Positions 1 to 64,000 of a stretch of DNA of 64,000 nt are shown here, piece after piece. The translations under genes were made by a program, and so were the position numbers. The first letter of the stretch is position 1; each line of letters opens with the position of its first letter. The stretch is from IMG/VR virus record IMGVR_UViG_3300030108_003689, positions 10,613 through 74,612 of that record. One strand, 5' to 3'. The notes beneath the pieces were generated by a model, which was not told the origin of the DNA, made no database searches, and saw only the letters and a list, made by a program, of their open reading frames with translations. Source of the stretch: a virus.

Positions 1-2
1 CA

Positions 3-641
3 CGCACAACTTCATTCGAAGAGGCTCTTCAGCAGCCTGCTACCTGGAGCAGCCGACTGAGCAAATGGCTGATTGGAAGGAGGTTTGCTCCCGCAGTGCT
101 CGACAGTACACATTGCGTTCGAGTCCTGCCGATTCCAACTGAATACAAATATCCAGAGTGGTTTCCTCATCAATGGGGCGGCGTGTACCGCATTGCTGCA
201 CCATGTTTCGAACCGGATGGATCATTCGCCAGCATTCATTGTAGAAGCGTCACCTACACCAAAGGTCGCCAACCGTCAGGATCAAAGACGAGATGGCCTA
301 CTGGTTACGAGGCCGGTGGCTTGTTGATGGCCAACGAAAGCGCCCAACGACTCATGAAGCAAGACATCGATAATGACCTTCAAGGATTTTTGATTTGCGA
401 AGGGATTACCGACTTCATGCGTGCATGTGAGCAGGCTTTTCGAGAGTCGCTCAAGCTTGCAATTGTTGCCGGTACTTCAGGGAGCTACAAATCTCTTGGT
501 AAGATCGACATCCCTTCTTCTCTGAAAATATTCATAGCAACCGACACAGATGATTCCGGCGATGCATATGCGTCAGAAATCTGCGACCAACTTCCCCAAC
601 ACACATTGTATCGCGTACCGCTGGAGCAAAAAAATGGCTGA
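3..641 (+). CDS. Toprim-domain primase-like protein (5' truncated by window edge)
   Basis: Frame open from position 3; Toprim motifs FLICEGITDF and IATDTDDSGD (E...DxD); directly upstream of VapE-like helicase. Confidence 0.7.
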   Translation, partial: RTTSFEEALQQPATWSSRLSKWLIGRRFAPAVLDSTHCVRVLPIPTEYKYPEWFPHQWGGVYRIAAPCFEPDGSFASIHCRSVTYTKGRQPSGSKTRWPTGYEAGGLLMANESAQRLMKQDIDNDLQGFLICEGITDFMRACEQAFRESLKLAIVAGTSGSYKSLGKIDIPSSLKIFIATDTDDSGDAYASEICDQLPQHTLYRVPLEQKNG

Positions 642-1968
642 TTTAGATGAGGTTCTCGCCGCTGGACAGACTCGACTCGCAGACTTGCTGCACATTGCTG
701 AAAATCAGAACTGCATCAATCAGCCCACAAGCCAAGCACAGGAACCTGAACTCTCAGAGCATGAGTCAGATGATCGGATCGTAGACATTCTCGATCAGTA
801 CATGGATCGAAACGGTCAACCTTCTGGCCGGTTTCGCAAAAACAAGAACAACCTGTACATCATCCTTAGAAGAGATCGGAGATGGCGTGGCCGGGTCTGG
901 CTAAACAGCTTCACCAATACGCTCAAGATCGATGATCGCGACTACAAGGACACAGACGATACGAGAATATCTTTGTGGGTCTCTCGTTCCTATGGTCTTG
1001 AGTACGGTGAGGCGGCTGTAAGCTCAACCGTCCAACTCATTGGTGAAGAGAACAAGCGGAACCCACTATTGGAGTGGCTGGATTCGATAGAGTGGGATGG
1101 GGTCAATCGTCTCAACTCTTGGGTCGTAGAGGCGACGGACTGTGAGGACAACGAGCTTAACCGAAAGATGGGCGAGAAATGGCTTATCCAGGCGATTGCT
1201 CGTGCATACGAGCCCGGTTGTAAGGCGGACTGCGTTTTGATCCTGGCTGGCGCTCAAGGCGCAGGCAAGAGCACTTTGTTCAGGACTCTGGCAACTGATG
1301 AATACTTCGCGGATACGCCGCTCGACATCGGTTCTGCCAACTCCTACAGCCAGATTGCCCGCGCTTGGATCTATGAGGTAGCCGAGTTGGACTCTGTTCG
1401 TCGATCAGCTAACAGCGCAACCAAGGCGTTCCTCAGCGCCCAGGAGGATAACTTCCGGCCTGCGTATGGTCGTCACGCGATCACCATCAAGCGACATGTA
1501 GTGTTCGCAGGAACGACGAATGAATCCCAGTTTATCAATGATATGACTGGATCGCGTAGGTATTGGCCGATCAAAGTAGACGCGGTCAATCTCAACTGGG
1601 TTCGAGAAAACAGAGATCAACTTTGGGCTGAGGCTATACTCGCGTACAAAAATGGTGAGACTTGGTATCTGGATAAAAAGCTCGACAAGGTTCGACATGA
1701 TTCGAGCAAGATATACCGACAAGACGACCCATGGTTGGAACCTATATCGAGCTTCCTAATGCTAAATCGTGGTTACGTGACAATGACTATGGTTATGGAA
1801 GATGGGTTAAAAATCGAACGAGGACGAATGAATAGACGAGATGAGATGAGAATATCAGAGATACTTAGGGAGCTTGATTACGAAAAGAAAAGGATGACCG
1901 TAGGCGGAAAAAGAAAGTATGTCTGGGCTAAAAATGAAATACTAACAATGAAAAGTAAGGAAGCATGA
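634..1968 (+). CDS. VapE/virulence-associated E family P-loop helicase (primase-associated)
   Basis: LEWLDSIEWDGVNR, PGCKAD, Walker A GAQGAGKST, YEVAELD, FRPAYGR, GTTN, TGSRRYWP, RDQLWAEA motifs; ATG 634 with GGAG RBS. Confidence 0.9.
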   Translation: MADLDEVLAAGQTRLADLLHIAENQNCINQPTSQAQEPELSEHESDDRIVDILDQYMDRNGQPSGRFRKNKNNLYIILRRDRRWRGRVWLNSFTNTLKIDDRDYKDTDDTRISLWVSRSYGLEYGEAAVSSTVQLIGEENKRNPLLEWLDSIEWDGVNRLNSWVVEATDCEDNELNRKMGEKWLIQAIARAYEPGCKADCVLILAGAQGAGKSTLFRTLATDEYFADTPLDIGSANSYSQIARAWIYEVAELDSVRRSANSATKAFLSAQEDNFRPAYGRHAITIKRHVVFAGTTNESQFINDMTGSRRYWPIKVDAVNLNWVRENRDQLWAEAILAYKNGETWYLDKKLDKVRHDSSKIYRQDDPWLEPISSFLMLNRGYVTMTMVMEDGLKIERGRMNRRDEMRISEILRELDYEKKRMTVGGKRKYVWAKNEILTMKSKEA

Positions 1969-3341
1969 TGAGTCAAGGAAGAGTAGCTATGGGTGGTGGG
2001 ATGTTCCTCGAGCCCGGAAGTAATAATGAAGAAGATATTTTGAGTAGATTTAAACTGTTGAACCCAGAATATAAGATGGCGGTTGGGCTGCGGGAGAAGG
2101 GTAAGTTTATCGCTTTACCCGATAAGTACATTAACGCATGCCATCGCATTCCACATGAGCACCCCTGGGGCGGAGGTCTTGCGATTCCGAGGAAGGCTGC
2201 GGCACAAATCAATCTCGGATCTTTCGCTGATGTGAGAACAGAGCCACAAGCTGAAAGTCTTAAGTTGGCATCAGGTTTCAGCCTGAGAGATTATCAACAA
2301 GACGCATTAGACGAGTGGGTCAAAAGTGGTGGCGAGGGCGTAATCATTGCACCGTGCGGTGCCGGAAAGACTGCTATCGGACTAACGGCAGCAACGGTAT
2401 TCGATACGAAGTGCTTGATCTTGGTTCACACCAACGATCTGGCTGTCCAGTGGATGAATCGATGCAAGTCAATGCTCGGTACGGAGGCAACGCAGTATGG
2501 CGCGGGTAAGAAAGATGACTCGGGACGGATTGTTGTCGCAACTTTCCAGACTCTTGAACGAATGTCATTCACAGAGAGGTACAACTTCGGGCGTCAGTTC
2601 GGACTCTGTATTGTTGATGAAGCACACCACGTTCCAGCGCACACCTTCTGCTCAGTTATGTTCTGTATGCCCGCGCGATACCGACTCGGACTAACGGCCA
2701 CGCCGAACAGACCAGATGGCCTAACATCCATTTTGTGGTGGCACTTCGGACAAGCAGTATACGAAATCACTAACGCACAGCTTGCAGGATCTGGTCACGT
2801 TGTTCCCCCTCGAATCGAGTGGTTCTTTACTGATTTTGCGGGGCCGCTACACCGAGTGGACTGGTCTAAGCTCATCACATTGATGACAACGGATGAGGAT
2901 CGTAATCAAAAGATTATCGATCGTGTCGTCCAGGCTTGTCGCAATAACAGGCAGGTCCTGGTCTTATCTGATCGGGTGGATCATTGTATAAAGTTGGCAG
3001 AGCAAATCAGCGCACATGACATCATCGCTGAACCACTGGTCGGTAAGATGACTAAGAAACAACGAGCAGAGGTTTTAGATCGTGCGGATAAAAGACAAAT
3101 TCAGGTCGTTTGCGCGACCACGGTTGCTGATGAAGGGCTTGACCTACCGTCTTTGGACACAGTTGTGCTTACAACTCCGACAAAGGCTATGGGTCGAATA
3201 CAACAAAGAATCGGCAGAGTCATGCGACCACACCCTGAAAAACAAGATCCGATCGTTATTGATTGCGTCGATGATATTGGATCAATGCGCGGTTTGGCTC
3301 GAAAAAGAAATAAACTCTATACGCAGATCGGATGTCATTAA
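1965..3341 (+). CDS. Superfamily 2 DEAH helicase (XPB/Res-III-like)
   Basis: LRDYQ Q-motif, APCGAGKT, IVDEAHH, LTATP, EGLDLP, QRIGRVMR. Confidence 0.93.
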   Translation: MMSQGRVAMGGGMFLEPGSNNEEDILSRFKLLNPEYKMAVGLREKGKFIALPDKYINACHRIPHEHPWGGGLAIPRKAAAQINLGSFADVRTEPQAESLKLASGFSLRDYQQDALDEWVKSGGEGVIIAPCGAGKTAIGLTAATVFDTKCLILVHTNDLAVQWMNRCKSMLGTEATQYGAGKKDDSGRIVVATFQTLERMSFTERYNFGRQFGLCIVDEAHHVPAHTFCSVMFCMPARYRLGLTATPNRPDGLTSILWWHFGQAVYEITNAQLAGSGHVVPPRIEWFFTDFAGPLHRVDWSKLITLMTTDEDRNQKIIDRVVQACRNNRQVLVLSDRVDHCIKLAEQISAHDIIAEPLVGKMTKKQRAEVLDRADKRQIQVVCATTVADEGLDLPSLDTVVLTTPTKAMGRIQQRIGRVMRPHPEKQDPIVIDCVDDIGSMRGLARKRNKLYTQIGCH

Positions 3342-3342
3342 G

Positions 3343-3552
3343 ATGGTTGATATTGTACAGAAACTACCAGTAGGTTGGTCAGTAATAGAAGCTGAAGATG
3401 AATGGATCGTCTATGACCAATATGATGAGCTTATATGCAAAGCCAGTACACCGGAGAAGCTCAATAGGCTTTTAGATATTGAGTTTCACATCGCTCAAAC
3501 ATTTGTAAGCGTGATGCACGCAATCAAAAATATTGAGCCTGCTGAAGCCTGA
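3343..3552 (+). CDS. Hypothetical protein (69 aa)
   Basis: ATG 1 nt after helicase stop; fills the gap to the convergent HTH gene. Confidence 0.6.
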   Translation: MVDIVQKLPVGWSVIEAEDEWIVYDQYDELICKASTPEKLNRLLDIEFHIAQTFVSVMHAIKNIEPAEA

Positions 3553-3786
3553 TCATCGTTTTATAGACAACCCAACCCAGTCTCTGACTGAAACTTGGTT
3601 GTTTGTGAGATCCTCTACAGCGATGGCAAGTCTCAACGAGGGCACTGATCGTCCCGATTCCAGATCTCTCAGATAGGGAACGGAAATGCTCAGGTCTCGT
3701 TGAGACAAGCTCTCGTTGATCCACTTGCAAAAAGCAAAGCGACTATTGAATCGAGGCTGAGCCTCTCGATAGTTCCTGATGTTCAT
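3553..3786 (-). CDS. XRE/Cro-like HTH transcriptional regulator
   Basis: ISVPYLRDLESGRSVPSLRLAIAVEDLT..VSVRDW is typical of Cro/CI-like HTH; divergent from YqaJ. Confidence 0.8.
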   Translation of the reverse strand: MNIRNYREAQPRFNSRFAFCKWINESLSQRDLSISVPYLRDLESGRSVPSLRLAIAVEDLTNNQVSVRDWVGLSIKR

Positions 3787-3817
3787 TAAATGTCCAGTCA
3801 GATTTTGTCCGGTAAAA

Positions 3818-3849
3818 GTGATGGTATTACCATCACATCATGATACTAT
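3818..3849. promoter_or_regulatory. Palindromic operator plus extended -10 in the divergent HTH/YqaJ intergenic region
   Basis: Perfect inverted repeat GTGATGGTA-T-TACCATCAC (3818-3836); TG-A-TACTAT (3841-3849) on + strand. Confidence 0.6.
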
Positions 3850-3877
3850 CCAATCGTACAAGCAAATAGGAGAAAAA

Positions 3878-4789
3878 ATGCCAAACGACTTGCCTACTAT
3901 AGGCAGCAGTAGCATCGGAGCGATACTCGGCCTTTCGCCCTGGAGTAGTCCATGGGATGTATGGGCCAGGGCACATGGGTTGACTGAAAGCTCATCATCA
4001 GCAGCGACTCAACGAGGACACATCCTCGAACCGGCAATCGGAGCGCACTACGCACACCTAAATAACGTTCAAATCAAAAGCGGACCCGCATACGAGGCCG
4101 ATCCAATCATAGGACCGGAAGAGTGGATGCACGCTCGTCCCGATTTCTTTGTCACCTCAGACAGTGCAAAGTGGTTGCTTGAGATCAAATCTACTCGAAA
4201 ATTCGATCACAGGTGGGGCTTTTCTGGTACAAACTCAGTCCCACCGTACTATGCCGCCCAGTGTGTTTGGCAGATGGCGGTAACTGACGATGACCGATGC
4301 GATCTTGCGGCCTTCGCCACGATGTCAGACGAGTATAGGTGCTTCAACATTTATCGAGACAAGTCAGTGGAATCCAAGATTCTTGACTATGTGCGCGACT
4401 GGTATGACAAGCACATACGTGCTGGCGCTCCGCCCGAAGTTGATGGATCAACAGCCTGCTCTAAGTCTTTAGCAAAGCTCTTCGAGCAAGAATCCAAGAC
4501 ATTCATCGAGCCTTCTGATACCCACATCGAGTTGGCGGCAAAGCTGAAAGACATACGCCGACAATGCGCCGAGCTTGACGATCAAAAGCGTCGTTTGGAA
4601 AATCAACTCAAAGAACAGATTGGCACCGCATATGGTATTGCTGGTGTCGCAACATGGTCCCAGAGCAAACCAAGAAGTCGATTCGATAGATCATCTTTCG
4701 AAGCCGACAACCCAGACCTCGCCAAGAAGTACATCATAGAAGGCGAACCAACCAGAACATTCAGATTCAACTACACAGGAGAGAAATAA
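3878..4789 (+). CDS. YqaJ-like (lambda Exo family) exonuclease
   Basis: IGSSSIGAILGLSPWSSP, RGHILEP, ARPD...LEIKS (PD-(D/E)xK), YYAAQCVWQM; ATG 3878 with AGGAG RBS. Confidence 0.92.
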   Translation: MPNDLPTIGSSSIGAILGLSPWSSPWDVWARAHGLTESSSSAATQRGHILEPAIGAHYAHLNNVQIKSGPAYEADPIIGPEEWMHARPDFFVTSDSAKWLLEIKSTRKFDHRWGFSGTNSVPPYYAAQCVWQMAVTDDDRCDLAAFATMSDEYRCFNIYRDKSVESKILDYVRDWYDKHIRAGAPPEVDGSTACSKSLAKLFEQESKTFIEPSDTHIELAAKLKDIRRQCAELDDQKRRLENQLKEQIGTAYGIAGVATWSQSKPRSRFDRSSFEADNPDLAKKYIIEGEPTRTFRFNYTGEK

Positions 4790-5613
4790 TGGCTAACGCA
4801 CTACATCCAGCAGTTCAGTTTAGAAACAACGTCGAGTCCAAGGCTTCTGATTTTCTTCAGACGATGGTAGGCACAGAAGAAGGAGCGCAGGCCGCTGGTC
4901 GAGTTGCGCTGGCATTTAGACAAGCAGCACAGGTCAATGACCGTCTGTACTCTTGTGACCCAGCCTCGGTCGCCCAGGCGGTTGCCTTGTCTGCTATGAC
5001 TGGTCTTATGCCCGGTGGGCCACTGCCTGACGTTTACTTGCTACCAAGAGGCAAAACGCTTCAATGGCAAGTATCCCACCGAGGGTTCGCCAAGCTCGCC
5101 GCCAGGGGAGGAGTCCGACTCCGAACCAAGGCTGTGTTTGAAAGCGACACGTTCCATGTCATCGAAGGAACGGAGCCAAAGCTGGAACACGTACCAGACC
5201 TAAACGCACAACAATCATGGGAATCTCTTACAGCGGTATACGTAGTTGCACACTACAAGGACGGCTCTAAAGACTTTGTCGTCATCCGTAAGGCCGACAT
5301 CGAAAAGCGTAGGGCCAACTCCGATGCCTGGAAGCGAAACAAGAACCAATCCCCATGGGGCCAGTGGCCTATCGAGATGGCACTCAAGACTGGACTTAGG
5401 TATGCGTTTGCTCGCGGCATCGTCCCTATGGATGATACAACTTCCAATGCCTATGATCATGATGGCAAGCAAGATGCCATAGCTGAGGATCTCAAAGTCG
5501 TTGAGATGAATGATATTCCTGAGATGGATTCTATGAATCTGTTGACCGAACAACTCGACGAGCTTTCAGAGGTTAAGGAGAAAGAGAAGGAAGAATCCGT
5601 ACTCGAAGATTAG
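4789..5613 (+). CDS. recT: RecT family single-strand annealing recombinase
   Basis: SCDPASV..A...GL.PG, YLLPRG...QWQVSHRGF, PWGQWPIEMALKT, acidic C-terminal tail; paired with YqaJ. Confidence 0.88.
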   Translation: MANALHPAVQFRNNVESKASDFLQTMVGTEEGAQAAGRVALAFRQAAQVNDRLYSCDPASVAQAVALSAMTGLMPGGPLPDVYLLPRGKTLQWQVSHRGFAKLAARGGVRLRTKAVFESDTFHVIEGTEPKLEHVPDLNAQQSWESLTAVYVVAHYKDGSKDFVVIRKADIEKRRANSDAWKRNKNQSPWGQWPIEMALKTGLRYAFARGIVPMDDTTSNAYDHDGKQDAIAEDLKVVEMNDIPEMDSMNLLTEQLDELSEVKEKEKEESVLED

Positions 5614-10232: not shown

Positions 10233-10519
10233 CAGTTACAACTCGCATTAGTAGCGGCACAAATTTTGGCCTGATTAATCGCCTGCTGCTGCTGAACTTC
10301 GAGCATCTTACCCATGAGTTCTTCCATTTTATCGAGGCGCTTTTCGACTCCTTCGATTTTAAGGTCTACAACTTCTTGTTTTCCTTCTTTGGACTCGATG
10401 ACTGTGACTCTTCTCTCAAGTTCTTCTGTTTCTTGTGCAGCAGACTCGAATGATGCAAAAGCGGCGCCAGCAGCAAACAAAATAGTCCCGCAGGGAATGG
10501 CTATATCTTTCATGTTCAT
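10232..10519 (-). CDS. TM + coiled-coil protein (holin/antiholin-like)
   Basis: N-terminal hydrophobic segment then heptad repeats; in lysis cluster. Confidence 0.55.
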   Translation of the reverse strand: MNMKDIAIPCGTILFAAGAAFASFESAAQETEELERRVTVIESKEGKQEVVDLKIEGVEKRLDKMEELMGKMLEVQQQQAINQAKICAATNASCN

Positions 10520-55697: not shown

Positions 55698-55726
55698 AGT
55701 CTATATTTGTACAAACACCACGTCAA
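55698..55726 (-). promoter_or_regulatory. Sigma70-type promoter (leftward)
   Basis: TTGACG-17 nt-TAGACT on - strand. Confidence 0.7.
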
Positions 55727-55933
55727 CCCTGAGCTTTGTAGATTTACTATCACTATCATTTCCCCAGGGGGGGACTTCGTCCCCCCCCAGCGCTGCGAGC
55801 CGCCACCGGCAGCCGCGATGGCCACCGCCTCTCCCCCCGCCGCGACGAGGCGAGGCTCCGCCCTGACCCTGGTCCGGGCCTCCGGTTCACCCCTCGAAAA
55901 ACCCAGGGCAAAGGCGGGTTATGGCGTATGCTT

Positions 55934-56389
55934 CTACATATCGTCACCTCCACAGGGGGGGCAGGCCATGGGGCCAGCACCGCCCACAGGGGGGGCACCG
56001 TCGCCGATGGCGAGGGCACCAGCCACCAGGGCGGCACGGGCACCAGCCACCAGGGCTGAGGCCTTACGGCGGAACCACCGCCCAGCAGCACCAGCCGCCG
56101 CGCGCGCGCCATTAAGAAGTGCAGCCACCACAGGGGGGGCAGCATCAGCCTCGGCACCGTCAACGATGGCGACCGGGGCAACCTCAGCAGCAGGGGCCAC
56201 CGGGGCAGCCTCGGCACCGTCAGCAGCAACCACCACCAGGGGGGAAGCGATGACGACGACGCGAGGGGCACCGGGGACCCGAAGCTGAGGAACCTTGGCC
56301 CAGGCCACGAATCGACCCGTCGCAGCACACCGAGCCCGTTGCCGGGGGGCGGCTGCGTCGAGGTCTGCAAAGGCAAGTGCGAAGGTCAT
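55934..56389 (-). CDS. Ala-rich low-complexity protein, possibly leaderless from a sigma54 promoter
   Basis: In-frame peptide repeats (DGAEA x2, ALVAGA x2); ATG about 2 nt after predicted TSS; overlaps other GC-rich ORFs, so uncertain. Confidence 0.45.
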   Translation of the reverse strand: MTFALAFADLDAAAPRQRARCAATGRFVAWAKVPQLRVPGAPRVVVIASPLVVVAADGAEAAPVAPAAEVAPVAIVDGAEADAAPPVVAALLNGARAAAGAAGRWFRRKASALVAGARAALVAGALAIGDGAPPVGGAGPMACPPCGGDDM

Positions 56390-56400
56390 GGCCCCTTCTT

Positions 56401-56418
56401 ATGCAAGTGCCGTGCCAA
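56401..56418 (-). promoter_or_regulatory. Sigma54 (-24/-12) promoter, leftward
   Basis: TTGGCAC-GGCAC-TTGCAT, a perfect match to TGGCAC-N5-TTGCW. Confidence 0.75.
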
Positions 56419-56466
56419 TCTTTGGCACACCCTGACGGGGGGCTCACCTGGCAGCAAACGGGCCAA

Positions 56467-56811
56467 AAACGCTGTACGCAAAGCCATTTTGGCACAACCA
56501 AGGTATGGCACAGGACTTGCATGGGGGGAGAGCATTTTTCCCTTGCCACGTCAACACCACGACTCGAAACCCAAAATGCTAAACGCTGTACGTCTCTGCA
56601 TTTGTCGTCCTTCGAAAAGTAGACCACGACATGTGTGTCGCGGTTTGGCAGGGTCTTCCAAACGTTGTACGTCTCTGCATCGAAATATTGCGTACAGCGT
56701 TTAGGCCATTCCTGACCACGACATATATGTCACGGTTTGGCATGGACTGTCTGTGCCAAATCAGGCCCCTACTGGTGAGTAGATTTTCAAAACCGCTGTA
56801 CGTCTCTGCAT
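56467..56811. repeat. Dispersed repeats AAACGCTGTACG(TCTCTGCAT) x5 and GACCACGACATRTRTGTCRCGGTTTGGCA x2
   Basis: First family at about 56467, 56581, 56660, 56689-56702 (inverted), 56791; second family at 56622-56650 and 56714-56742. Confidence 0.85.
56506..56522 (+). promoter_or_regulatory. Sigma54 (-24/-12) promoter, rightward 1
   Basis: TGGCAC-AGGAC-TTGCAT, a perfect consensus match. Confidence 0.75.
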
Positions 56812-56820
56812 TGGCACAGT

Positions 56821-56837
56821 TTGGCACGGTATGTGCT
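56821..56837 (+). promoter_or_regulatory. Sigma54 (-24/-12) promoter, rightward 2
   Basis: TTGGCACG-GTAT-GTGCT with exact GG-N10-GC spacing; predicted TSS about 56848. Confidence 0.6.
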
Positions 56838-56847
56838 ATATAGGTTG

Positions 56848-57433
56848 CCGACCGGCGGGACACTCCCCGCCCCGCTCTTTGACATCGTCAACCGGCTCCT
56901 TGCCAACACCAAGGTTGGAGCCGGCGAAGTGGAGGACATCAACACTCGCCCCCTTAGTTGTAGGGGGGTCGGACTCAACAAACAGTCCCCATCATCTGAT
57001 GACGTACCAGAACCGACCGGGCTCAGCCCTACTGCCACGGCAGGAACATCGGGGATTATCGGAAGCCAGACACCGACAGCGACCCCTGAGGGTAACAACC
57101 TCAGGCTGACCGGGTAGACGGCACTCAGTGAGGGGCTGGCCCATGAGAGCAAGCGAGGCCAGGAAGAGTGAGCGCAACAGCCCCTTTGAACGTGGGGTGG
57201 CGAAGACCGGGAGACAAGACCGGGAGCCAAGCACCGATGTCCGCAACCACTTGGGAATACTCCCTCAACACTCAACCACACTGCCGACTTGGAGGCAGTC
57301 CGGGCAACCCTTCACCCGGTCAATGAACTGGTCATCTCAACGAGGGCATCGGCAGCCGTGGCTGCTGCATGCATGGACCGCCAAACGCTCCCCCCTTCCA
57401 CTCCCGGAATGCAGGGGGGGCGCTGCAATCGTC
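56848..57433 (+). ncRNA. Candidate large structured non-coding RNA
   Basis: No credible ORF/RBS; dense local and long-range stems; bounded by a promoter and a hammerhead cleavage site. Confidence 0.5.
56854..56884 (+). promoter_or_regulatory. Hairpin plus boxA antitermination signal (rrn/nut-like)
   Basis: GGCGGG-acactc-CCCGCC followed by CGCTCTTTGACA (E. coli rrn boxA is TGCTCTTTAACA). Confidence 0.55.
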
Positions 57434-57485
57434 CGGTGCTGATGCTGCACCGCTGATGAGGGCCCACAGCAGGGCCGAAACGATT
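57427..57485 (+). ncRNA. Type III hammerhead ribozyme 1 (cleavage after GUC at 57433)
   Basis: Stem III AATCGT/ACGATT; stem I CGGTGC-TGATGCT-GCACCG; core CTGATGA(+G); stem II GGCCC-ACAGCA-GGGCC; GAAA. Confidence 0.9.
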
Positions 57486-57616
57486 CACATAGCCGTCGCC
57501 GGGGCTCCTCCAGCGTCAGACGAGAGTCGAGCCCTGGCGGGCGGCGGACCTCCCCCGGTTCGCTGCTCCGCCGCTCCGACGGCCAAGCACCTGCAACCCT
57601 CAAACCCAGAGAAACC

Positions 57617-57853
57617 AAGGTTCCCCGGTACTTTCCGGGCAGCACCTGGAACCCGAAACCCGACGCCGGATGGCTGGGGGACGGGCTGAACCTGGAAGGG
57701 TCCACTTTCACCTGGAACCCGAAACGCGATTATTGGGCCTCGAACGCCGGATATCGCGTGGCCGATGGTAGTTTCAAACCGGTAGAGAGCGATGCGCCGC
57801 TGACCCCCTACGCACTGAACCTCGCCATATCGCGCCTCTATTCGAGCCTGTGA
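57617..57853 (+). pseudogene. Coding-like frame lacking a canonical start codon
   Basis: 78 codons with high GC3 and TWNPK repeat; AAG where a start is expected. Confidence 0.35.
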
Positions 57854-57860
57854 GCCTCAA

Positions 57861-58055
57861 CCTGCCCCGACCTGCCCCGACCTTTCCCGCCTTTTTTGGT
57901 GGGGTTAGGGCAGCGATTATCCGGGGATGAAGCTCAACTATCATCGAGCAGGGGGTGAGGTTAGGGCAGAAAGCCCCCAACTTTTTCTCTCTCTCCCCCC
58001 TATGGGGTTCTCCCCCTTGCTCTTCTTTCCCTGAGGTTAGGGCAGGTTAGGGCAG
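57861..58055. repeat. Iteron-like GGTTAGGGCA x4 plus inverted variant x2 around a pyrimidine tract (candidate origin)
   Basis: Copies at 57903, 57959, 58035, 58045; CCTGCCCCGA x2 at 57861-57880; CT tract 57981-58000. Confidence 0.7.
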
Positions 58056-58150
58056 CAGCGAATAACCCAGGTACAACCGTTACTTTCAATCAACCCTGAC
58101 GGTCCAACCGTCAACCCCAACCGGGAGCCACTGGCCCCAACGGACACCCC

Positions 58151-58558
58151 ATGACCATGATTAGCAGCAACATCACCGCCCGGCGACCCACCGGAGTCGG
58201 ACTCCTCCCCTGGCAGGCACGCAGTGACGCCTGGACCGCTCAGATTCACTACCAGGGGCGCAGCATGACCGTGCCGTTTTTCACCGGGTCCGCGCATGCT
58301 CACCCCACAACCTGGGACGTGGTCTACTGCCTGCTCTCTGATGCCCACTATGTGATGTGGGGCCAGACCCTTGAAGAGTTCTGCTCGGACTTCGGGTACG
58401 ACCTTGACGACCCCGACAGCCGCGAAGCGAAGGAGGCCACCGCCACGTATCGCCAGACGGTCAAGCAGACTCGCAGCCTCAAGCGGTTGCTCGGCGATGA
58501 CTTCGAGCGGTTCATGGCCATGGACCTTGAAGAAGAACTGACGGCGCACTGCCAATAA
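58151..58558 (+). CDS. Conserved phage early hypothetical protein
   Basis: VPFFTG...PT..DV..CLLSDA...EEFCSDFGYD.D motif; high GC3. Confidence 0.8.
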   Translation: MTMISSNITARRPTGVGLLPWQARSDAWTAQIHYQGRSMTVPFFTGSAHAHPTTWDVVYCLLSDAHYVMWGQTLEEFCSDFGYDLDDPDSREAKEATATYRQTVKQTRSLKRLLGDDFERFMAMDLEEELTAHCQ

Positions 58559-58566
58559 CCCCCACC

Positions 58567-58582
58567 GGGGGCTTCGGCCCCC
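58567..58582 (+). other. C(UUCG)G tetraloop hairpin (repeated at about 58834)
   Basis: CACCGGGGGCTTCGGCCCC appears after two consecutive stops. Confidence 0.75.
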
Positions 58583-58596
58583 ATTGGATACCCACC

Positions 58597-58818
58597 ATGT
58601 CACGTGTTTACGAAGACTCAAACGGCAACCGCCGAGAGCACGACCTTCGCGGCGTGTACGTTATTCACCGCGACGGTGACAAGGTCACCGGCCACTACAT
58701 CAGCCGCAGCCGTGGTCGCTTTCACATTCACAAGTTCACCAACTGCACACTTGAATCGGTGGTTGAGCAAGCCGAGCGTCTCATTCATGAGCCGCCTGTC
58801 TACTTCCTGACCGCCTGA
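58597..58818 (+). CDS. Early hypothetical protein
   Basis: 73 aa, high GC3, flanked by UUCG hairpins. Confidence 0.7.
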   Translation: MSRVYEDSNGNRREHDLRGVYVIHRDGDKVTGHYISRSRGRFHIHKFTNCTLESVVEQAERLIHEPPVYFLTA

Positions 58819-58871
58819 ACCCCAACCCTCACCGGGGGCTTCGGCCCCTACCCCCTCACACTGGAGCTACC

Positions 58872-59309
58872 ATGTCAGCACTCATCAACGATTCCCACAT
58901 CTTCCTCAACTCAATGGCCCGCTTCGAGCCTGAGAGCCCCCTCGAAGAGGCCATGGGCCGCGACAACTTCGTCGAGATGGACCTTTTCAACGCTATGGCG
59001 CTCATGAGCACCAAACAAAAGGACATCCTCAACGAACTGGCGTTCAGGGGTGCCGAGTTCAGCCTTATCCGGGTCGCTCTTGGTAAGGGACGCGAGCGCC
59101 AGGGCACACTGAGGCTGTGTGTTCAGCGCAGCATCGCCTTCGACTCTGCTCACATCGACATCAGCCCCCGTGGCAAGGTGACCGGGATGGTGTTCGGCCA
59201 CCCATGGGCAACCGACAAGCGGAAGGCGCTGGGCGACGTGAAGGTGAAGAGCCTCCGCGACCTGACCAGCCACTACGGCGAGATGGGCTTGGATAGACTC
59301 GATGACTGA
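58872..59309 (+). CDS. Early hypothetical protein
   Basis: GGAG RBS, high GC3. Confidence 0.75.
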   Translation: MSALINDSHIFLNSMARFEPESPLEEAMGRDNFVEMDLFNAMALMSTKQKDILNELAFRGAEFSLIRVALGKGRERQGTLRLCVQRSIAFDSAHIDISPRGKVTGMVFGHPWATDKRKALGDVKVKSLRDLTSHYGEMGLDRLDD

Positions 59310-59352
59310 CAGTCTCTGGATAGTTCCCGAACAACTCAACCATGGAGACCCC

Positions 59353-59706
59353 ATGCACATGTTCTACCTCACGAGCAGGGCCGATAACACCGGCCCCCTG
59401 CTCGACCTGCTGCCGTCGTTTCACCTGAACAACGACACCCCAGACACTTCCCTGGTGGATGCTGGCTGGCGCTATGCCCAGTTCGCCTACACCGGGGCCC
59501 GTGTGCTGGTCCGGTGGAAGCAGAACCGCCGATGGCTCAACGCCTGGAGCAACTTCGTAACCGACTTCGAGGTCCGCCACGTTGACACCGTGGTTGACTC
59601 GGATGGCGTCATCTGGGCTGGCCTGGGTGAGCCTCACAACCTCAAGCTGTATGCACTCGCCGACCGTGTAGCGGAACGCGAGGGCTATCCCATCCTCTCT
59701 AAGTAG
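59353..59706 (+). CDS. Early hypothetical protein
   Basis: ATG 59353 after GGAG (alternative start 59302). Confidence 0.7.
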   Translation: MHMFYLTSRADNTGPLLDLLPSFHLNNDTPDTSLVDAGWRYAQFAYTGARVLVRWKQNRRWLNAWSNFVTDFEVRHVDTVVDSDGVIWAGLGEPHNLKLYALADRVAEREGYPILSK

Positions 59707-59746
59707 AACCCCCCACCCTCTCTCAAACAAACAGGAGCCCATCACT

Positions 59747-60697
59747 ATGGCTAAGTTCGACCCATACAAAGTAATCGCAGACACCCTCATCGCCTCCATC
59801 GAGGCAGGCACCCTCGCATGGCGCTGCGGCTGGAAGAAGCTGGGCGGCGCACTCGTTCGCCCCGTCAGCGGAGGCAGCGGCAAGCCTTACAACGGCATCA
59901 ACGTGCTGCTGCTCTGGGGCTCTGCTCAGGACCAGGGCTTCTGGTCGCCGACTTGGCACACCTACAAGGGTGCCCAGGGCAAGGGCGGCCAAGTCCGCAA
60001 GGGCGAGAAGGGCACCAAGATTGTGAAGTGGCTGTTCCTGCCCTACAAGGACCCCAAGACCGGCAAGCCCCAACTTGACGCCAACGGTGAGCCCATGACC
60101 TATGCACGGCTCAGGCTGTACACGGTCTTCAATGCCTGCCAGATTGAGTGGGCCGAGGGCAGCGAGCACGCCCCAGGGCCACGGCCTACGGTTGAGGACC
60201 ACGATGGCTCTCAAGCTGGCGACAACTTCGAGCAGGCCAAGGTCATCCTCGATGCATGGGCCACCGAGGTTGAGATTCGCCACGGCGGCGACCGTGCCTT
60301 CTACCGTCCATCGGATGACCACATCCAGTTGCCACTGTTCGAGCAGTTCGAGAGTGAGGCCGAGTACTTCTCGACCGCGTTCCACGAGGCCGTCCACAGC
60401 ACGGGCCACAAGTCCAGGCTGAACCGCTTCAAGAAGGAGCGCAAGGGCAGCTACAAGGATGCCTACGCATTCGAAGAGTTGGTCGCCGAGCTTGGCGCAG
60501 CGTTCCTCTGCTGCGATGCTGGTATCAGCCAGCCTGACGAGCCACGCGCCGACCACGCTGCGTACCTGAGCCACTGGCTCAAGGTCCTCAAGGGTGACCC
60601 CAAGGCCATCGTGTCTGCGGCATCCAAGGCCGAGAAGGCCGCCAAGCTGGTGCTCGCCAAGGCTGACGAGGCCGACCAGCAGATGGCCGCCAAGTAA
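59747..60697 (+). CDS. ardC: ArdC-like antirestriction protein (ssDNA-binding domain + zincin MPTase)
   Basis: GKPYNGINVLLLW, W.TYK.A...GGQVRKGEKG, YTVFNACQ, AFY.PS.D.I.LP, FHEAVHSTGH..RL.R, YAFEELVAELGAAFLC. Confidence 0.92.
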   Translation: MAKFDPYKVIADTLIASIEAGTLAWRCGWKKLGGALVRPVSGGSGKPYNGINVLLLWGSAQDQGFWSPTWHTYKGAQGKGGQVRKGEKGTKIVKWLFLPYKDPKTGKPQLDANGEPMTYARLRLYTVFNACQIEWAEGSEHAPGPRPTVEDHDGSQAGDNFEQAKVILDAWATEVEIRHGGDRAFYRPSDDHIQLPLFEQFESEAEYFSTAFHEAVHSTGHKSRLNRFKKERKGSYKDAYAFEELVAELGAAFLCCDAGISQPDEPRADHAAYLSHWLKVLKGDPKAIVSAASKAEKAAKLVLAKADEADQQMAAK

Positions 60698-60769
60698 TCT
60701 GTGAGAGGGTAGCAGTCCGCGCGGCCTGCTTTATCAAAGCCGCGCCCCCTTCAATCAACAGGAGCAATC

Positions 60770-61228
60770 ATGATCGACACTTTCAACCCCCTTGAGCTTC
60801 AGCGCGTCGAGGTCTACTGGAACCTCCACAAGAACCTGTGGAGCATCCGCAGCACAGCGACTGGCCGCCTGATACCGATACGCCCCCACCGTCAGAACCT
60901 ACACCTGATGTTCGTCAAGTGGGTAGTGCAGCCCGCTGGCCGTGCTCGTGTCCTCCGTGAGGGCCGTAAGAACGTCCATGCCTTCGCCCGTGGCTACCTC
61001 GTGCCTGATTGTGGCACCTTCAATCACTTCATGGTGGATGCTGAGGAGTACGCCGACGCTGACCCGCTCATGTACAACCCCTACAAAATGGACACCTTCC
61101 AGACTGTGGGCACCGGCAAGACGGTGCGCGAGTCCGAGAAGGCCTACCTCGACATGAGAGCAGGCCGCCCCCGCGTGTCCGCTGTTCGCAGCACCCCCAA
61201 CCCTTCACCCTTTGCACAGGAAGCATAA
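60770..61228 (+). CDS. Conserved phage early protein
   Basis: VYWNLHK..WSIR, V..AGR.RVLRE.RKNVHAF..G, YNPYK; AGGAG RBS. Confidence 0.8.
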   Translation: MIDTFNPLELQRVEVYWNLHKNLWSIRSTATGRLIPIRPHRQNLHLMFVKWVVQPAGRARVLREGRKNVHAFARGYLVPDCGTFNHFMVDAEEYADADPLMYNPYKMDTFQTVGTGKTVRESEKAYLDMRAGRPRVSAVRSTPNPSPFAQEA

Positions 61229-61503
61229 TGACTGACAACATCTCTTTCGACCGCACCTTCTGCATGAACCGTCACCACAACGACTGGGAGGAAGCGTGGC
61301 AGACGCTCGCCCGCCACTATTCGAACGCCCGCATGGCTGACAAGGTAAATGCCCCTTGCCCCTTCAGTGGCGAGTCCTGGCAGTACATGGGCAGCTACAA
61401 CAAGCCACAGGGCAACGTCCACACGTTCCGCCATCGCTGCCACCCTGGCATGGATGGCCAGCGCGTCAACGTCCGAGTGTTCATCCGGGGAGGTGAGATG
61501 TGA
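61228..61503 (+). CDS. Early hypothetical protein
   Basis: GESWQYMG...HTFRHRCHP motif; TAATG overlap. Confidence 0.75.
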   Translation: MTDNISFDRTFCMNRHHNDWEEAWQTLARHYSNARMADKVNAPCPFSGESWQYMGSYNKPQGNVHTFRHRCHPGMDGQRVNVRVFIRGGEM

Positions 61504-61907
61504 TTGCCCGATTCAAGGACAGCGTGAACGGCGGCGATGTCGTCGTCCAACTGAAGACCGGCCAGACCCTGCGGCACCACCGCTTCACACCCACCGATGA
61601 GGGGTATGACCGCACTATCATCGAGTGGGAATACGACGGGCACACGGTCACCCGTACCTACTTCAATGAGGGACGCGACTGCGACGGCTACATGTCCAGC
61701 CAGTTCGTCCAGTTCTGCCCTGTGGGCAGGCTTCGCTCGGAGACAGTGAACCGCCCGACTGGTGAACGGTGGGAAGCATTCACCGACTACGACGGCACCA
61801 CTGCCCACGAGTGTGTGACCACCTGGGAAGAGCAACCCGGCTGGCCCGCATGGACCGAGGACAGCCACGAGTACTACGACGCCAACGCTGTAGCCGCTGG
61901 CTACTGA
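61500..61907 (+). CDS. Early hypothetical protein
   Basis: GTG after GGAGG; PTDEGY, GRDCDG, D.NA.AAGY motifs. Confidence 0.75.
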   Translation: MIARFKDSVNGGDVVVQLKTGQTLRHHRFTPTDEGYDRTIIEWEYDGHTVTRTYFNEGRDCDGYMSSQFVQFCPVGRLRSETVNRPTGERWEAFTDYDGTTAHECVTTWEEQPGWPAWTEDSHEYYDANAVAAGY

Positions 61908-61930
61908 ACCCCCCCACCCCTGGAGCCCCC

Positions 61931-62026
61931 ATGACTTGGTACTGCTCTCTTTGCAAAACCTTCAATGCCCTTAACATCCTCCGCTGCCGCTGCTGTGGAA
62001 AGCATCGCGACGACAGCCGCTACTGA
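61931..62026 (+). CDS. 31-aa RanBP2-type zinc-finger microprotein
   Basis: MTWYCSLCKTFN...RCRCCG with GGAG RBS. Confidence 0.55.
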   Translation: MTWYCSLCKTFNALNILRCRCCGKHRDDSRY

Positions 62027-62052
62027 ACCCCCCCACTAACTGGAGAACCGAC

Positions 62053-62466
62053 ATGCCATGGACTGAAGAAGAGAAAGAGCAGCACCGTCAGCAAATGCGA
62101 GATGAGTATGCGAGAATCGCCGCAGAACTGAAGGCCGAGAAGGCGCGAGAGTGGGCGACCATTCCGCCCGAAGTTCTCGAAGTTCACAACGCCCTGACCG
62201 ATAACGCCCGGAAGGTCTACACGGACCCGGAAGAGTACGAGGCGATACGCCCGGTCCACACCTACCCAGAGGACTACTGGGAGGGCTCGGAGCGCAAGTA
62301 CACCGGGGCATGGGTCACCGGCAGTAACTACGAGGACGGCAAGGCCGTCATGGTCTGGAAGGACGGCGCGTGGTTCTACCACTCGACGCGGTCTGGTCAT
62401 CGGCGTCCGATGGAGGGCGGCCACGAAGAGGCGCTCGCGAATGCGTCAATCTTCTGGACTGGATGA
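62053..62466 (+). CDS. Early hypothetical protein
   Basis: GGAG RBS, high GC3. Confidence 0.75.
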   Translation: MPWTEEEKEQHRQQMRDEYARIAAELKAEKAREWATIPPEVLEVHNALTDNARKVYTDPEEYEAIRPVHTYPEDYWEGSERKYTGAWVTGSNYEDGKAVMVWKDGAWFYHSTRSGHRRPMEGGHEEALANASIFWTG

Positions 62467-62485
62467 GCGATGGCCCTTCGGGGCC

Positions 62486-62538
62486 GTGTCGGGGCGTGAT
62501 GCTCGCCCCCTGATGATGACCGAGCACGGTCGAAACAC
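62486..62538 (+). ncRNA. Type III hammerhead ribozyme 2 (cleavage after GUC at 62490)
   Basis: Stem III GTGT/ACAC; stem I GGGGCG-TGATGCT-CGCCCC; core CTGATGA(+T); stem II GACCG-AGCA-CGGTC; GAAA; intergenic. Confidence 0.9.
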
Positions 62539-62556
62539 AACCAACAGGAGCCCATC

Positions 62557-62760
62557 ATGAAGTACCCACCCGGAACCATTTTCACCGTCGGCTATCAACT
62601 CGAAAGCTGCTGGATGGTTATCCACACCAGCAAGGTCGAGGCCCGTAGCAAAGAAGAGGCCGTCAACAAGGTTGCGACTGACGTGCCCCGTTCCTACGGA
62701 CACTACGTCGATCGCATCCAAGGCACCCTTGGCCCCAAGAAGTCTGGAGGTGCGGCATGA
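62557..62760 (+). CDS. Early hypothetical protein
   Basis: AGGAG RBS just after hammerhead 2. Confidence 0.7.
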   Translation: MKYPPGTIFTVGYQLESCWMVIHTSKVEARSKEEAVNKVATDVPRSYGHYVDRIQGTLGPKKSGGAA

Positions 62761-63239
62761 GGCGCGACATCGACACCCTACGCTTCACCTTCCCGGCCCG
62801 CTCGGGCCGACCCATGGATGAAATCCGGTTCGGCCTGGAGGAGAACCTTGTGACGTTCTACTTCCGCCGCACTGGAACGGACACCACCGCGTACTGGATA
62901 GACCGCAAGGGTCTGGACATTGACGACTTGGACTTGATGGTGCTGGACTCAGTGTGCCCCTTGCGTAACCTTGGAGCACGGCAGGCCATCATGGACCTGT
63001 CGCGATACGCCCGCCACCTCCAATCTCAAGGCTTGGTGCAAGTCGGGAACTGTCGTCTCACCATCACTCGATGCGGGACAACCGGCGACCGGAGGTATTG
63101 CATGACCGGCCCGTCAGGGGTTCACACCCTCGACTTCGACAGCACCGACCCTAAACGACTGGAGGCCCACTGGCATGGCTTCCTGCACAATAACGGTTGC
63201 CCTCATTACAGGAGCCAGTGGAAAGCGCCCACTTCCTGA
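62757..63239 (+). CDS. Early hypothetical protein
   Basis: GGAGG RBS, ATGA overlap. Confidence 0.7.
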   Translation: MRRDIDTLRFTFPARSGRPMDEIRFGLEENLVTFYFRRTGTDTTAYWIDRKGLDIDDLDLMVLDSVCPLRNLGARQAIMDLSRYARHLQSQGLVQVGNCRLTITRCGTTGDRRYCMTGPSGVHTLDFDSTDPKRLEAHWHGFLHNNGCPHYRSQWKAPTS

Positions 63240-63318
63240 CCTATGTCCGCGTTTAGAACCCCTCTCGTTCTGTAGGGTGAGAGGCAAACCAAACAACCCC
63301 CGACACACAGGAGCCATC

Positions 63319-63468
63319 GTGAACGACTCAAGAAAAGCAACCGGATCCTTCCGGTTCATCATCGGCAAGCCTTGCAGGTTCTGGACCGACACAGTTGGCA
63401 ACGGCTTTCTCATGGACAACTGGGGCAACCTGCTTCCAGTTCCAAACATCAAAACAATCACCCAATAG
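63319..63468 (+). CDS. Small early hypothetical protein (49 aa)
   Basis: GTG after ACAGGAGCCATC, the same RBS cassette as neighbours. Confidence 0.55.
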   Translation: MNDSRKATGSFRFIIGKPCRFWTDTVGNGFLMDNWGNLLPVPNIKTITQ

Positions 63469-63478
63469 GAGGTGTATC

Positions 63479-63835
63479 ATTACACCCATCACTAATCGTC
63501 AAATGTCCGCTCGGCTTCGCAAGCTGGGCTTCCGCAAGTCCCGCTTCCAAATGAGCCGCAATGGTGTGAGCTTCGAGCATCCCGATGCATCGGCGCTGTT
63601 CACCTTCGGCAAGCACCCTGAAAGCAGCGTCATGGTCACCGCGCCCGACAACCCTGGGTGGTCGTTCGCCTTCCTGACTGAAGACACCTGGGACCGCATC
63701 CAGCGCAACCCTTGGGTAGTCCTGCCATGGGAGGAGCCCAAGGACGGGGTAGAGCAGCCCCTGTGCCACCGTGAGATTCTACTGTGCTGGGCTCGCGCCT
63801 TCGCCGCCATGCTCGCCGAGTCGGGTGAGGAATAG
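63479..63835 (+). CDS. Early hypothetical protein (ATT 63479 or ATG 63503 start)
   Basis: Perfect AGGAGGT at 63467-63473 precedes in-frame ATC/ATT; coding-like downstream. Confidence 0.65.
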   Translation: MTPITNRQMSARLRKLGFRKSRFQMSRNGVSFEHPDASALFTFGKHPESSVMVTAPDNPGWSFAFLTEDTWDRIQRNPWVVLPWEEPKDGVEQPLCHREILLCWARAFAAMLAESGEE

Positions 63836-63863
63836 GCCAACCGGCCCCCCCATACTGACAGAC

Positions 63864-63893
63864 TTGACACCCCGAACCAAACAAGTGTATAAG
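63864..63893 (+). promoter_or_regulatory. Sigma70-type promoter
   Basis: TTGACA-18 nt-TATAAG. Confidence 0.55.
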
Positions 63894-63902
63894 GAGATTC
63901 TG

Positions 63903-64000
63903 ATGAGCGATACACACACACAGCCCAAGGTTGACTTCATCCACAATCAAGTAGAGAACAGGCTGCAAAGCCTGCGCTCTCTTCTGGAGGGTGAGTACGC
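63903..64000 (+). CDS. Hypothetical protein, 3' truncated by window edge
   Basis: AAGGAG then ATG AGC GAT...; open to the end of the window. Confidence 0.6.
   Translation, partial: MSDTHTQPKVDFIHNQVENRLQSLRSLLEGEY

Follow-up and report, generated by a model that had tools for sequence, protein, structure and literature searches.

Can a phage place its central control region under sigma-54 (RpoN) promoters when it carries no gene for the protein that opens them? Phages normally launch early expression from strong sigma-70 sites or from sites read by a phage polymerase, because an incoming genome must be expressed at once. The sigma-54 holoenzyme forms closed complexes that open only upon ATP hydrolysis by an AAA+ enhancer-binding protein. 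We considered this question for a 74.6-kb marine phage in which sigma-54-type sites had been noticed between two divergent gene blocks. With a probability that we put at roughly 0.7, the segment 56390-56850 appears to be a divergent master control region built on promoters of the host sigma-54.

Sigma-54-type sites in the divergent intergenic region

The window, which is the whole stretch of 64,000 nucleotides that was analyzed and to which positions refer unless stated otherwise, comprises bases 10613-74612 of one 74,612-bp IMG/VR virus record rated as complete by CheckV. The phage gene products include a large terminase, a major head protein, an internal virion protein, RusA, a 3434-aa protein, and a peptidase-tailed 1192-aa protein. 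The terminase was approximately 26% identical to that of any isolate, with no isolated phage close, and a DNA search of the control region against isolated phages returned no match. Leftward genes extend from 56389 down to about 8831, and rightward genes from 58151 to the contig end and onward over genome bases 1 to about 19,400, as judged by base composition and the preliminary description of the DNA. The sigma-54 sites occupy the genome's only divergent intergenic region, and no regulator was recognized among the flanking ORFs when they were compared with PHROGs, Pfam, and the Atlas. G+C also changes abruptly near window position 55,700, from about 48% to about 61%, and some 12 kb spanning the contig ends (window 55700-64000 with genome bases 1-4000) remain at the higher level; the composition of the rightward early block is unlike the rest of the phage.

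All of the elements listed in the preliminary description were recovered, within 1 nt of the positions it had given. Two perfect TGGCAC-N5-TTGCA sites face opposite ways, at 56402-56417 on the minus strand (TGGCACGGCACTTGCA; P_L) and at 56506-56521 on the plus strand (TGGCACAGGACTTGCA; P_R1), and a third at 56822-56837 on the plus strand (TGGCACGGTATGTGCT; P_R2) has one mismatch and the exact GG-N10-GC spacing. Scored against TGGCAC-N5-TTGCW, P_L and P_R1 again had no mismatches and P_R2 had one, and in all three sites the GG at -24 and the GC at -12 are exactly 10 nt apart. The sigma-54 consensus YTGGCACGr-N3-TTGCW (PMC12316311) reaches beyond the pattern first used, and its extended part YTGGCACGr was found to be matched by TTGGCACGG in both P_L and P_R2. 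Additional copies of TGGCAC were present at 56423 (+), 56490 (+), 56753 (-), and 56812 (+).

The consensus was scanned against the whole 74,612-bp genome with GG and GC required, and no site without a mismatch was found besides P_L and P_R1. Perfect sites are expected 0.09 times per window, and at least two of them occurred in none of 100 dinucleotide shuffles of the window (0/100); both perfect sites and the correctly spaced third fall inside 436 bp. Seven of the 43 copies of TGGCAC lie within approximately 415 bp (416 bp), where 0.28 would be expected (binomial P ~1e-8), as do eight of the 60 copies of TTGGCA (0.39 expected; binomial P 6e-9). Because of these shuffle and binomial figures, chance is no explanation for the sites. 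Four sites with one mismatch occur elsewhere in the window, and the one that was inspected (10454-10469, minus strand) is within a small ORF. A consensus scan of the plus strand of 56200-58300 gave no sigma-70-type promoter.

Conservation and geometry among relatives

Three IMG/VR contigs were retrieved with a flanking protein as query, and 19 marine metagenome contigs, including Tara Oceans assemblies, matched a 22-base core pattern from the conserved RNA downstream of the sites. The same pattern had 0 matches in 185,579 prokaryote genomes, and read-set indexing found the sequence in metagenomes of marine and estuary origin, from 12 studies. The pattern CCCCTNTGAACGTGGGG yielded four extra loci in viral contigs (L007-L010), which were rejected as chance matches in coding DNA.

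P_R2 was conserved in 12 distinct sequences from 20 loci, which were stacked without gaps to give a conservation profile. Across the 12 sequences the invariant positions are -28 to -19 (GTTGGCACGG) and the TGC at -14 to -12; the N3 spacer and positions -10 to -1 vary freely, and conservation is back from +1. The GG-N10-GC spacing was unchanged in the 12 homologues, and all relatives whose upstream sequence is available, apart from L001 and L003, had TTGGCACGG-N3-(G/T/A/C)TGCA. Between the -12 C and the point where conservation of the downstream RNA sets in, there are exactly 11 nt of variable sequence. The exception is L023, where the promoter element is kept and the RNA starts about 135 nt further on; there the -24/-12 element is retained although the flanks on both sides are unrelated. 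In L034, which is another phage, TTGGCACGGGTCCTGCA stands beside the same box as in L022 with a different downstream region. Judged from these alignments, the P_R2 pattern is that of a -24/-12 promoter with a predicted start 12 nt after the GC, here at 56848, and not that of a passenger of a conserved block. Two observations count against this assignment. The P_R2 mismatch, a G for T before the invariant TGC (counted there as -14), is shared by most relatives, and L001 and L003 have TGGCAC without the -12 GC.

For P_L, the -12 C is at 56403 and the predicted start at about 56391, 2 nt 5' of the ATG at 56389 (ATG = +3). This ATG opens the first leftward ORF (55934-56389, minus strand), an Ala/Val/Pro-rich frame of 151 aa with a conserved N-terminal part of about 47 aa (MTFALAF...) and no PHROG, Pfam, or Atlas match. 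A perfect or near-perfect minus-strand site with an exact 12-nt gap to the ATG was encountered in four lineages (the window, L014, L016, and L022), and the 12 bases in between differ among them, with three different intervening sequences. Given this gap, with the start 2 nt before the ATG, the P_L mRNA is probably near-leaderless. An SD-like AAGAAGGGG 5' of the ATG would lie outside such a transcript, which is a point against the model. It was noted separately that L001 (approximately 1760-2020) and the same region of L003 carry an imperfect (CA/CG)n-like repeat of about 260-330 bp in place of the Ala-rich leftward ORF.

P_R1, with a predicted start at about 56532 from the consensus scan, has counterparts at a matching location in L012, L014, and L016 (-342 to -351 relative to the start of P_R2). 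Group-B relatives have instead TGGCACAGGACTGGCA (GG-N10-GC) at -101, directly after a palindrome. From these alignments, a tandem of putative rightward sigma-54 sites is a recurring feature of the region. By eye, the sequence just after the P_R1 -12 element (56522-56560) and its L014 and L016 equivalents show a small hairpin whose changes appear compensatory, and then a direct repeat of CACGTCA.

Several relatives lack a sigma-54 site at one of these places. The P_L position is without one in L002, the L011 group, L019, and L021, which share a TTGnCA-like hexamer 29 nt 5' of the same ATG (read by eye); this leaves room for a 17-nt spacer, a weak -10 that starts with TA and is poor, and 6 nt. 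The P_R2 position is without one in L001, L003, and L033. In L033, a clear sigma-70-like pair, TTGCAC-N17-TATAAC, precedes an alternative 5' end of the same RNA, and in L001 and L003 the sigma-70-like hexamers before the RNA start are less clear (all read by eye). Relative to the same ATG or RNA start, sigma-70-like pairs can thus be placed at a suitable distance, clearly only in L033 and weakly elsewhere. Should this reading be correct, promoter types have been swapped while the start points stayed fixed, which would speak for the sigma-54 sites as working promoters.

The segment behind P_R2 contains no credible ORF for approximately 1.3 kb from 56848. Its first 586 nt (56848-57433, plus strand) form a highly conserved, ORF-free RNA that is the predicted product of P_R2, with conservation beginning at the predicted +1 and compensatory (double) changes in 24 of 80 RNAalifold pairs. 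A hairpin and the boxA-like GCTCTTTGACA, which was found once in the genome, lie at 56854-56884, within 40 nt of the predicted start, as is expected of a leader. No Rfam family matched the 586-nt RNA; searches of the window and of a 2-kb region gave only a tRNA and noise. The RNA ends at a predicted type III hammerhead ribozyme (57426-57486, plus strand) that would cut after C57433. RF00008 aligned over the full model at 32.5 bits (E 7e-6), below the gathering score of 48.5, and the match appeared only with 96 nt searched alone. The CUGANGA and GAAA cores and the GUC triplet (ending at C57433) are present, and stems I, II, and III covary among relatives; one extra nucleotide, or in some relatives an inserted mini-hairpin, is located between the CUGANGA core and stem II. 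Two RNA libraries contained three short contigs of relatives over parts of 56579-57446, with 57447-58300 uncovered, a coverage too sparse to reveal transcription or its ends. One of these contigs spans the P_R2 promoter, for which DNA carry-over and read-through are indistinguishable.

Further features were encountered around the leader. A second hammerhead core, CUGAUGA...GAAAC, is present at 62510 (+), on the same strand and about 5 kb downstream. After the first hammerhead, a conserved ORF-free block (CATAGCTGCCCCGC ... CAACCCTCA) covers 57487-57620 and is shared with L001-L003, L014, and L021-L023, so the structured transcript continues beyond the cleavage site. At 57862-58055, just 5' of the first rightward ORF (58151), there are four direct copies of AGGTTAGGGCAG and two inverted copies (CTGCCCCGACCT), apparently with similar copies at the equivalent place in L002 (read from the printed sequence); these could represent another group of operators or iterons. 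Behind the leader RNA, the window (58151 onward) and its closest relative L002 (from about 2190 downward) have different first genes, and the early region therefore appears as a mosaic behind a conserved promoter and leader. In L034 (IMGVR_UViG_3300025109_000013, about 5380-5410, minus strand), an inverted box and TTGGCACGGGTCCTGCA occur with the spacing seen in L022, followed by a GC-rich stretch that is non-coding to the eye and unrelated to the 586-nt RNA. This stretch might be another non-coding RNA driven by sigma-54.

Repeats, activation and competing readings

Between and beside the promoters, we found five copies of a box, AAACGCTGTACG(TCTCTGCAT), and two palindromes, all confined to the control region within the genome. 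Box copy 1 (AAACGCTGTACG...) is upstream of P_R1 at 56467-56488, copy 2 (AAACGCTGTACGTCTCTGCAT) is at 56581-56602, and copy 3 at 56660-56681, all on the plus strand; copy 4 is inverted (56688-56704, minus strand), and copy 5 (56791-56812, plus strand), at -57 to -36 of P_R2, has the same position in nearly all relatives. The imperfect 22-bp palindrome ACCRYGACAT-NN-ATGTCRYGGT occurs at 56623-56644, starting at -220 from the P_R2 start, and in a second copy at 56715-56736, starting at -128. In relatives, the boxes are at about -56, -175/-187, and -266/-313, and the palindromes at about -117/-128, -210/-220, and -290. These distances from the promoter suit enhancers. The mismatches in the palindrome arms switch sides between copies, for which reason the palindrome is read as a dimeric protein site and not as an RNA hairpin; the 22-bp palindromes are candidate enhancer or operator sites.

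The box was also noted before promoters of another type. In the IMG/VR contigs L033 and L035, a AAACGCTGTACGTCTCTGCAT box lies approximately 30-60 bp before sigma-70-like promoters (TTGCAC-N17-TATAAC and ...TATAAT), and the same box is common to several GC-rich phage contigs, whatever the promoter type. The box is therefore no sigma-54-specific enhancer, and from its distribution a site for a general regulator, or an architectural one, is the likelier reading. We know of no convincing fit of either the box or the palindrome to the sites of NifA, NtrC, LexA, Pho, CRP, IHF, CtrA, or DnaA. Minus-strand mini-ORFs that begin with MQRRTA in each box were dismissed as genes, as their lengths and tails are not conserved.

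The repeat density of the region, which resembles that of an origin, raises the alternative that the repeats, boxes, and palindromes are sites of some other DNA-binding protein (a repressor, a replication initiator with iterons, or a packaging factor) and that the likeness to sigma-54 sites is incidental. Each palindrome is followed by TTGGCA half-sites that lack a -12 element, and such half-sites are themselves arranged as palindromes (56410-56428 and about 56736-56760); the occurrence of the box before non-sigma-54 promoters in other phages fits such a protein as well. We consider this alternative rather unlikely. Two 11/11 matches together with the conserved GG-N10-GC and the extended consensus are hard to obtain by accident, the -12 TGC is invariant among variable neighbors, and fixed distances to an ATG and to an RNA start suit promoters and not iterons. 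An origin could, moreover, share the region without replacing the promoters. The three full sites thus look like real sigma-54 promoters, a view well supported by their conservation, correct orientation, and fixed distances.

The preliminary description had further proposed that the extra half-sites make up an array that docks or sequesters sigma-54 RNA polymerase. This did not hold up, as there are only three full sites, and the extra half-sites (56423, 56490) mostly lack conservation in the closest relatives or resemble decayed copies of promoter modules. The TTGGCAC at 56422-56428 (+), which is palindromic with the P_L -24 box, and that at 56489-56495 (+), 16 nt 5' of the P_R1 -24 box, are not conserved in L014 and L016. 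The copy at 56811-56817 (+), 10 nt 5' of the P_R2 -24 box, is variably kept: it reads TTGGCAC in L014, L016, and L019 and TTGGCAA in L002, and is lost in others. A TTGGCA directly follows palindrome 1 (56645-56650, +) with no -12 GC at the right distance, and TTTGGCA-N9-TGCCAAA can be read in the sequence after palindrome 2 (56737-56759). Group-B relatives carry a near-full sigma-54 site right after the corresponding palindrome (-101 vs -111 in the window). Behind each palindrome, the degenerate TTGGCA of the window corresponds to a full site in some relatives. We read the extra half-sites as probable relics or by-products of duplicated promoter modules and not as a docking array.

A related possibility is that the full sites bind the sigma-54 holoenzyme unproductively, for parking, sequestering, or as a roadblock, as with intragenic sigma-54 sites in E. 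coli. Closed complexes of sigma-54 are stable without an activator, the phage encodes none, and extra half-sites are present. Widespread non-promoter binding of sigma-54 has also been reported (PMC4591121). We regard this as decidedly unlikely, as only three full sites exist per genome, each oriented toward a conserved start codon or transcript start and set at a precise distance from it, and the half-sites are poorly conserved. Least probable are promoters for other machinery, either a phage or virion RNA polymerase with N4-like hairpin promoters or an unrecognized phage sigma factor, which the 3434-aa virion-type protein and the hairpin-forming palindromes near TTTGGCA might suggest and which are opposed by the lack of a PF00940 polymerase and of a sigma-70 region 2 in the genome, by a 3434-aa protein without a PHROG family match, by a terminase that is not N4-like (about 26% identity to any isolate), and by palindrome mismatches that switch sides as in a protein operator and not a strand-specific hairpin. 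The specific N4-like idea, with the giant protein as virion RNA polymerase, was ruled out by the terminase, PHROG, and PF00940 results.

Returning to the sigma-54 promoters, the claim that no activator is encoded was borne out for the window and extended to the whole genome, where a six-frame search found no sigma-54 activator domain (PF00158). Six-frame searches of the genome also gave no sigma-54 DNA-binding domain (PF04552), no sigma-70 region 2, and a single match to sigma-70 region 4 at 11.6 bits. The positive controls rang in all of these domain searches except that for the T7-type RNA polymerase PF00940, whose absence from the six-frame search is a weaker negative because its control failed to ring. 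From the sites and these searches we infer sigma-54 binding, the start sites, and a dependence on an activator. It had been suggested that early transcription needs a host activator. The need for a host activator remains the simplest explanation of a phage without one, and the restriction to early transcription does not stand, because P_L serves the leftward structural and late-looking block.

In the model that we favor, P_L would fire leftward into the long structural and late-looking block with a near-leaderless mRNA, and P_R1 and P_R2 would fire rightward in tandem. Transcription from P_R2 would start at 56848, the first base of the 586-nt structured leader with its boxA-type antitermination signal, and the hammerhead would cut the leader off the downstream early mRNA, which encodes an ArdC-like anti-restriction protein among others. 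Because the phage encodes no AAA+ activator, the promoters would fire only with an active host activator or an unrecognized phage factor. We infer the roles of the repeats from their placement, with the two palindromes (-128 and -220) and the five boxes (one at -57 to -36) potentially binding activator or modulator proteins. Placing immediate-early genes behind activator-dependent promoters is an odd strategy, and this counts against the model.

A hammerhead leaves a 2',3'-cyclic phosphate RNA end, the kind of end that serves as the RtcR signal. One possible scheme, which we consider unlikely, is that the clade runs both divergent units from host sigma-54 promoters that are switched on by an infection-triggered and not a nutritional host signal, through a stress-sensing host activator of the PspF/RtcR kind or a non-AAA+ phage factor on the boxes or palindromes. 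If true, sigma-54 closed complexes would be opened by a novel route, or phage entry would be coupled to a host stress sensor.

Host affinities and comparison with known systems

The suggestion that the sites hint at a host among the Myxococcota or other former Deltaproteobacteria was not sustained, as the relatives are marine or estuarine and the capsid, terminase, and ArdC affinities are alphaproteobacterial. The capsid matched phages of Bradyrhizobium, Ruegeria, and Brucella, the best E-value for the terminase was to a Roseobacter phage, and the ArdC-like protein was closest to plasmid genes, mostly of Alphaproteobacteria. A scan of the ArdC-like protein against prokaryote genome contigs returned no match and hence no host clue. 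These affinities weakly favor a marine alphaproteobacterium as the host. To our knowledge, Cyanobacteria are without rpoN. Actinomycetota are without it as well (PMC12316311). Both groups are therefore unlikely hosts.

A sigma-54 control region stays silent unless an ATP-driven activator is present, so that a host signaling protein, or a phage activator as yet unrecognized, would gate infection by this clade. One transcript would combine initiation at a sigma-54 promoter, antitermination through boxA, and processing by a ribozyme. The 12 distinct promoter variants, mostly from marine metagenome contigs (some from Tara Oceans), amount to natural mutagenesis data, and a defined 450-bp fragment is available for binding tests.

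The sites resemble bacterial sigma-54 promoters (glnAp2/NtrC, nifH/NifA, and pspA/PspF) in the GG and GC 10 nt apart, the consensus match, and the repeated palindromes 100-300 bp upstream. They differ in that they are carried by a virus without a sigma-54 or activator gene, and in that their palindromes and boxes match no known activator site. It is also unlike those promoters that one of the sites would yield a near-leaderless mRNA and another a large ribozyme-terminated leader (both predicted). With lambdoid PL/PR, the region shares a compact divergent layout, operators (here candidates) in several copies, and a boxA-type element near the beginning of the rightward transcript; however, the promoters here are of the sigma-54 and not the sigma-70 type, and no cI/Cro-like or N-like genes were recognized. 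The order of hairpin then boxA resembles that in rrn leaders, when compared at the motif level.

Hammerheads that flank gene blocks in prophages are known (Perreault et al. 2011, PMC3088659). The present ribozyme shares with these the type III form, the coding strand, and the cutting of a long phage transcript into pieces. Unlike them, it would define the 3' end of a 586-nt non-coding leader from a predicted sigma-54 promoter, and it has an extra nucleotide or mini-hairpin between the CUGANGA core and stem II.

We found no paper in the literature that describes a phage control region built on sigma-54 promoters. The nearest case is a sigma-54-like promoter, P015, whose start site has been mapped in Pseudomonas phage YuA (Ceyssens et al. 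2008, cited in PMC10914365). As far as that account goes, YuA likewise uses a host sigma-54-type promoter without encoding the factor, which in the present phage is a prediction, and P015 is the only YuA promoter of this kind, the others being sigma-70-type or phage-specific. The present phage has three sites that form a central divergent control region conserved across an uncultured marine clade; the two phages are unrelated and their hosts are different. Taken together with YuA, the region suggests that the use of sigma-54 by phages is under-reported.
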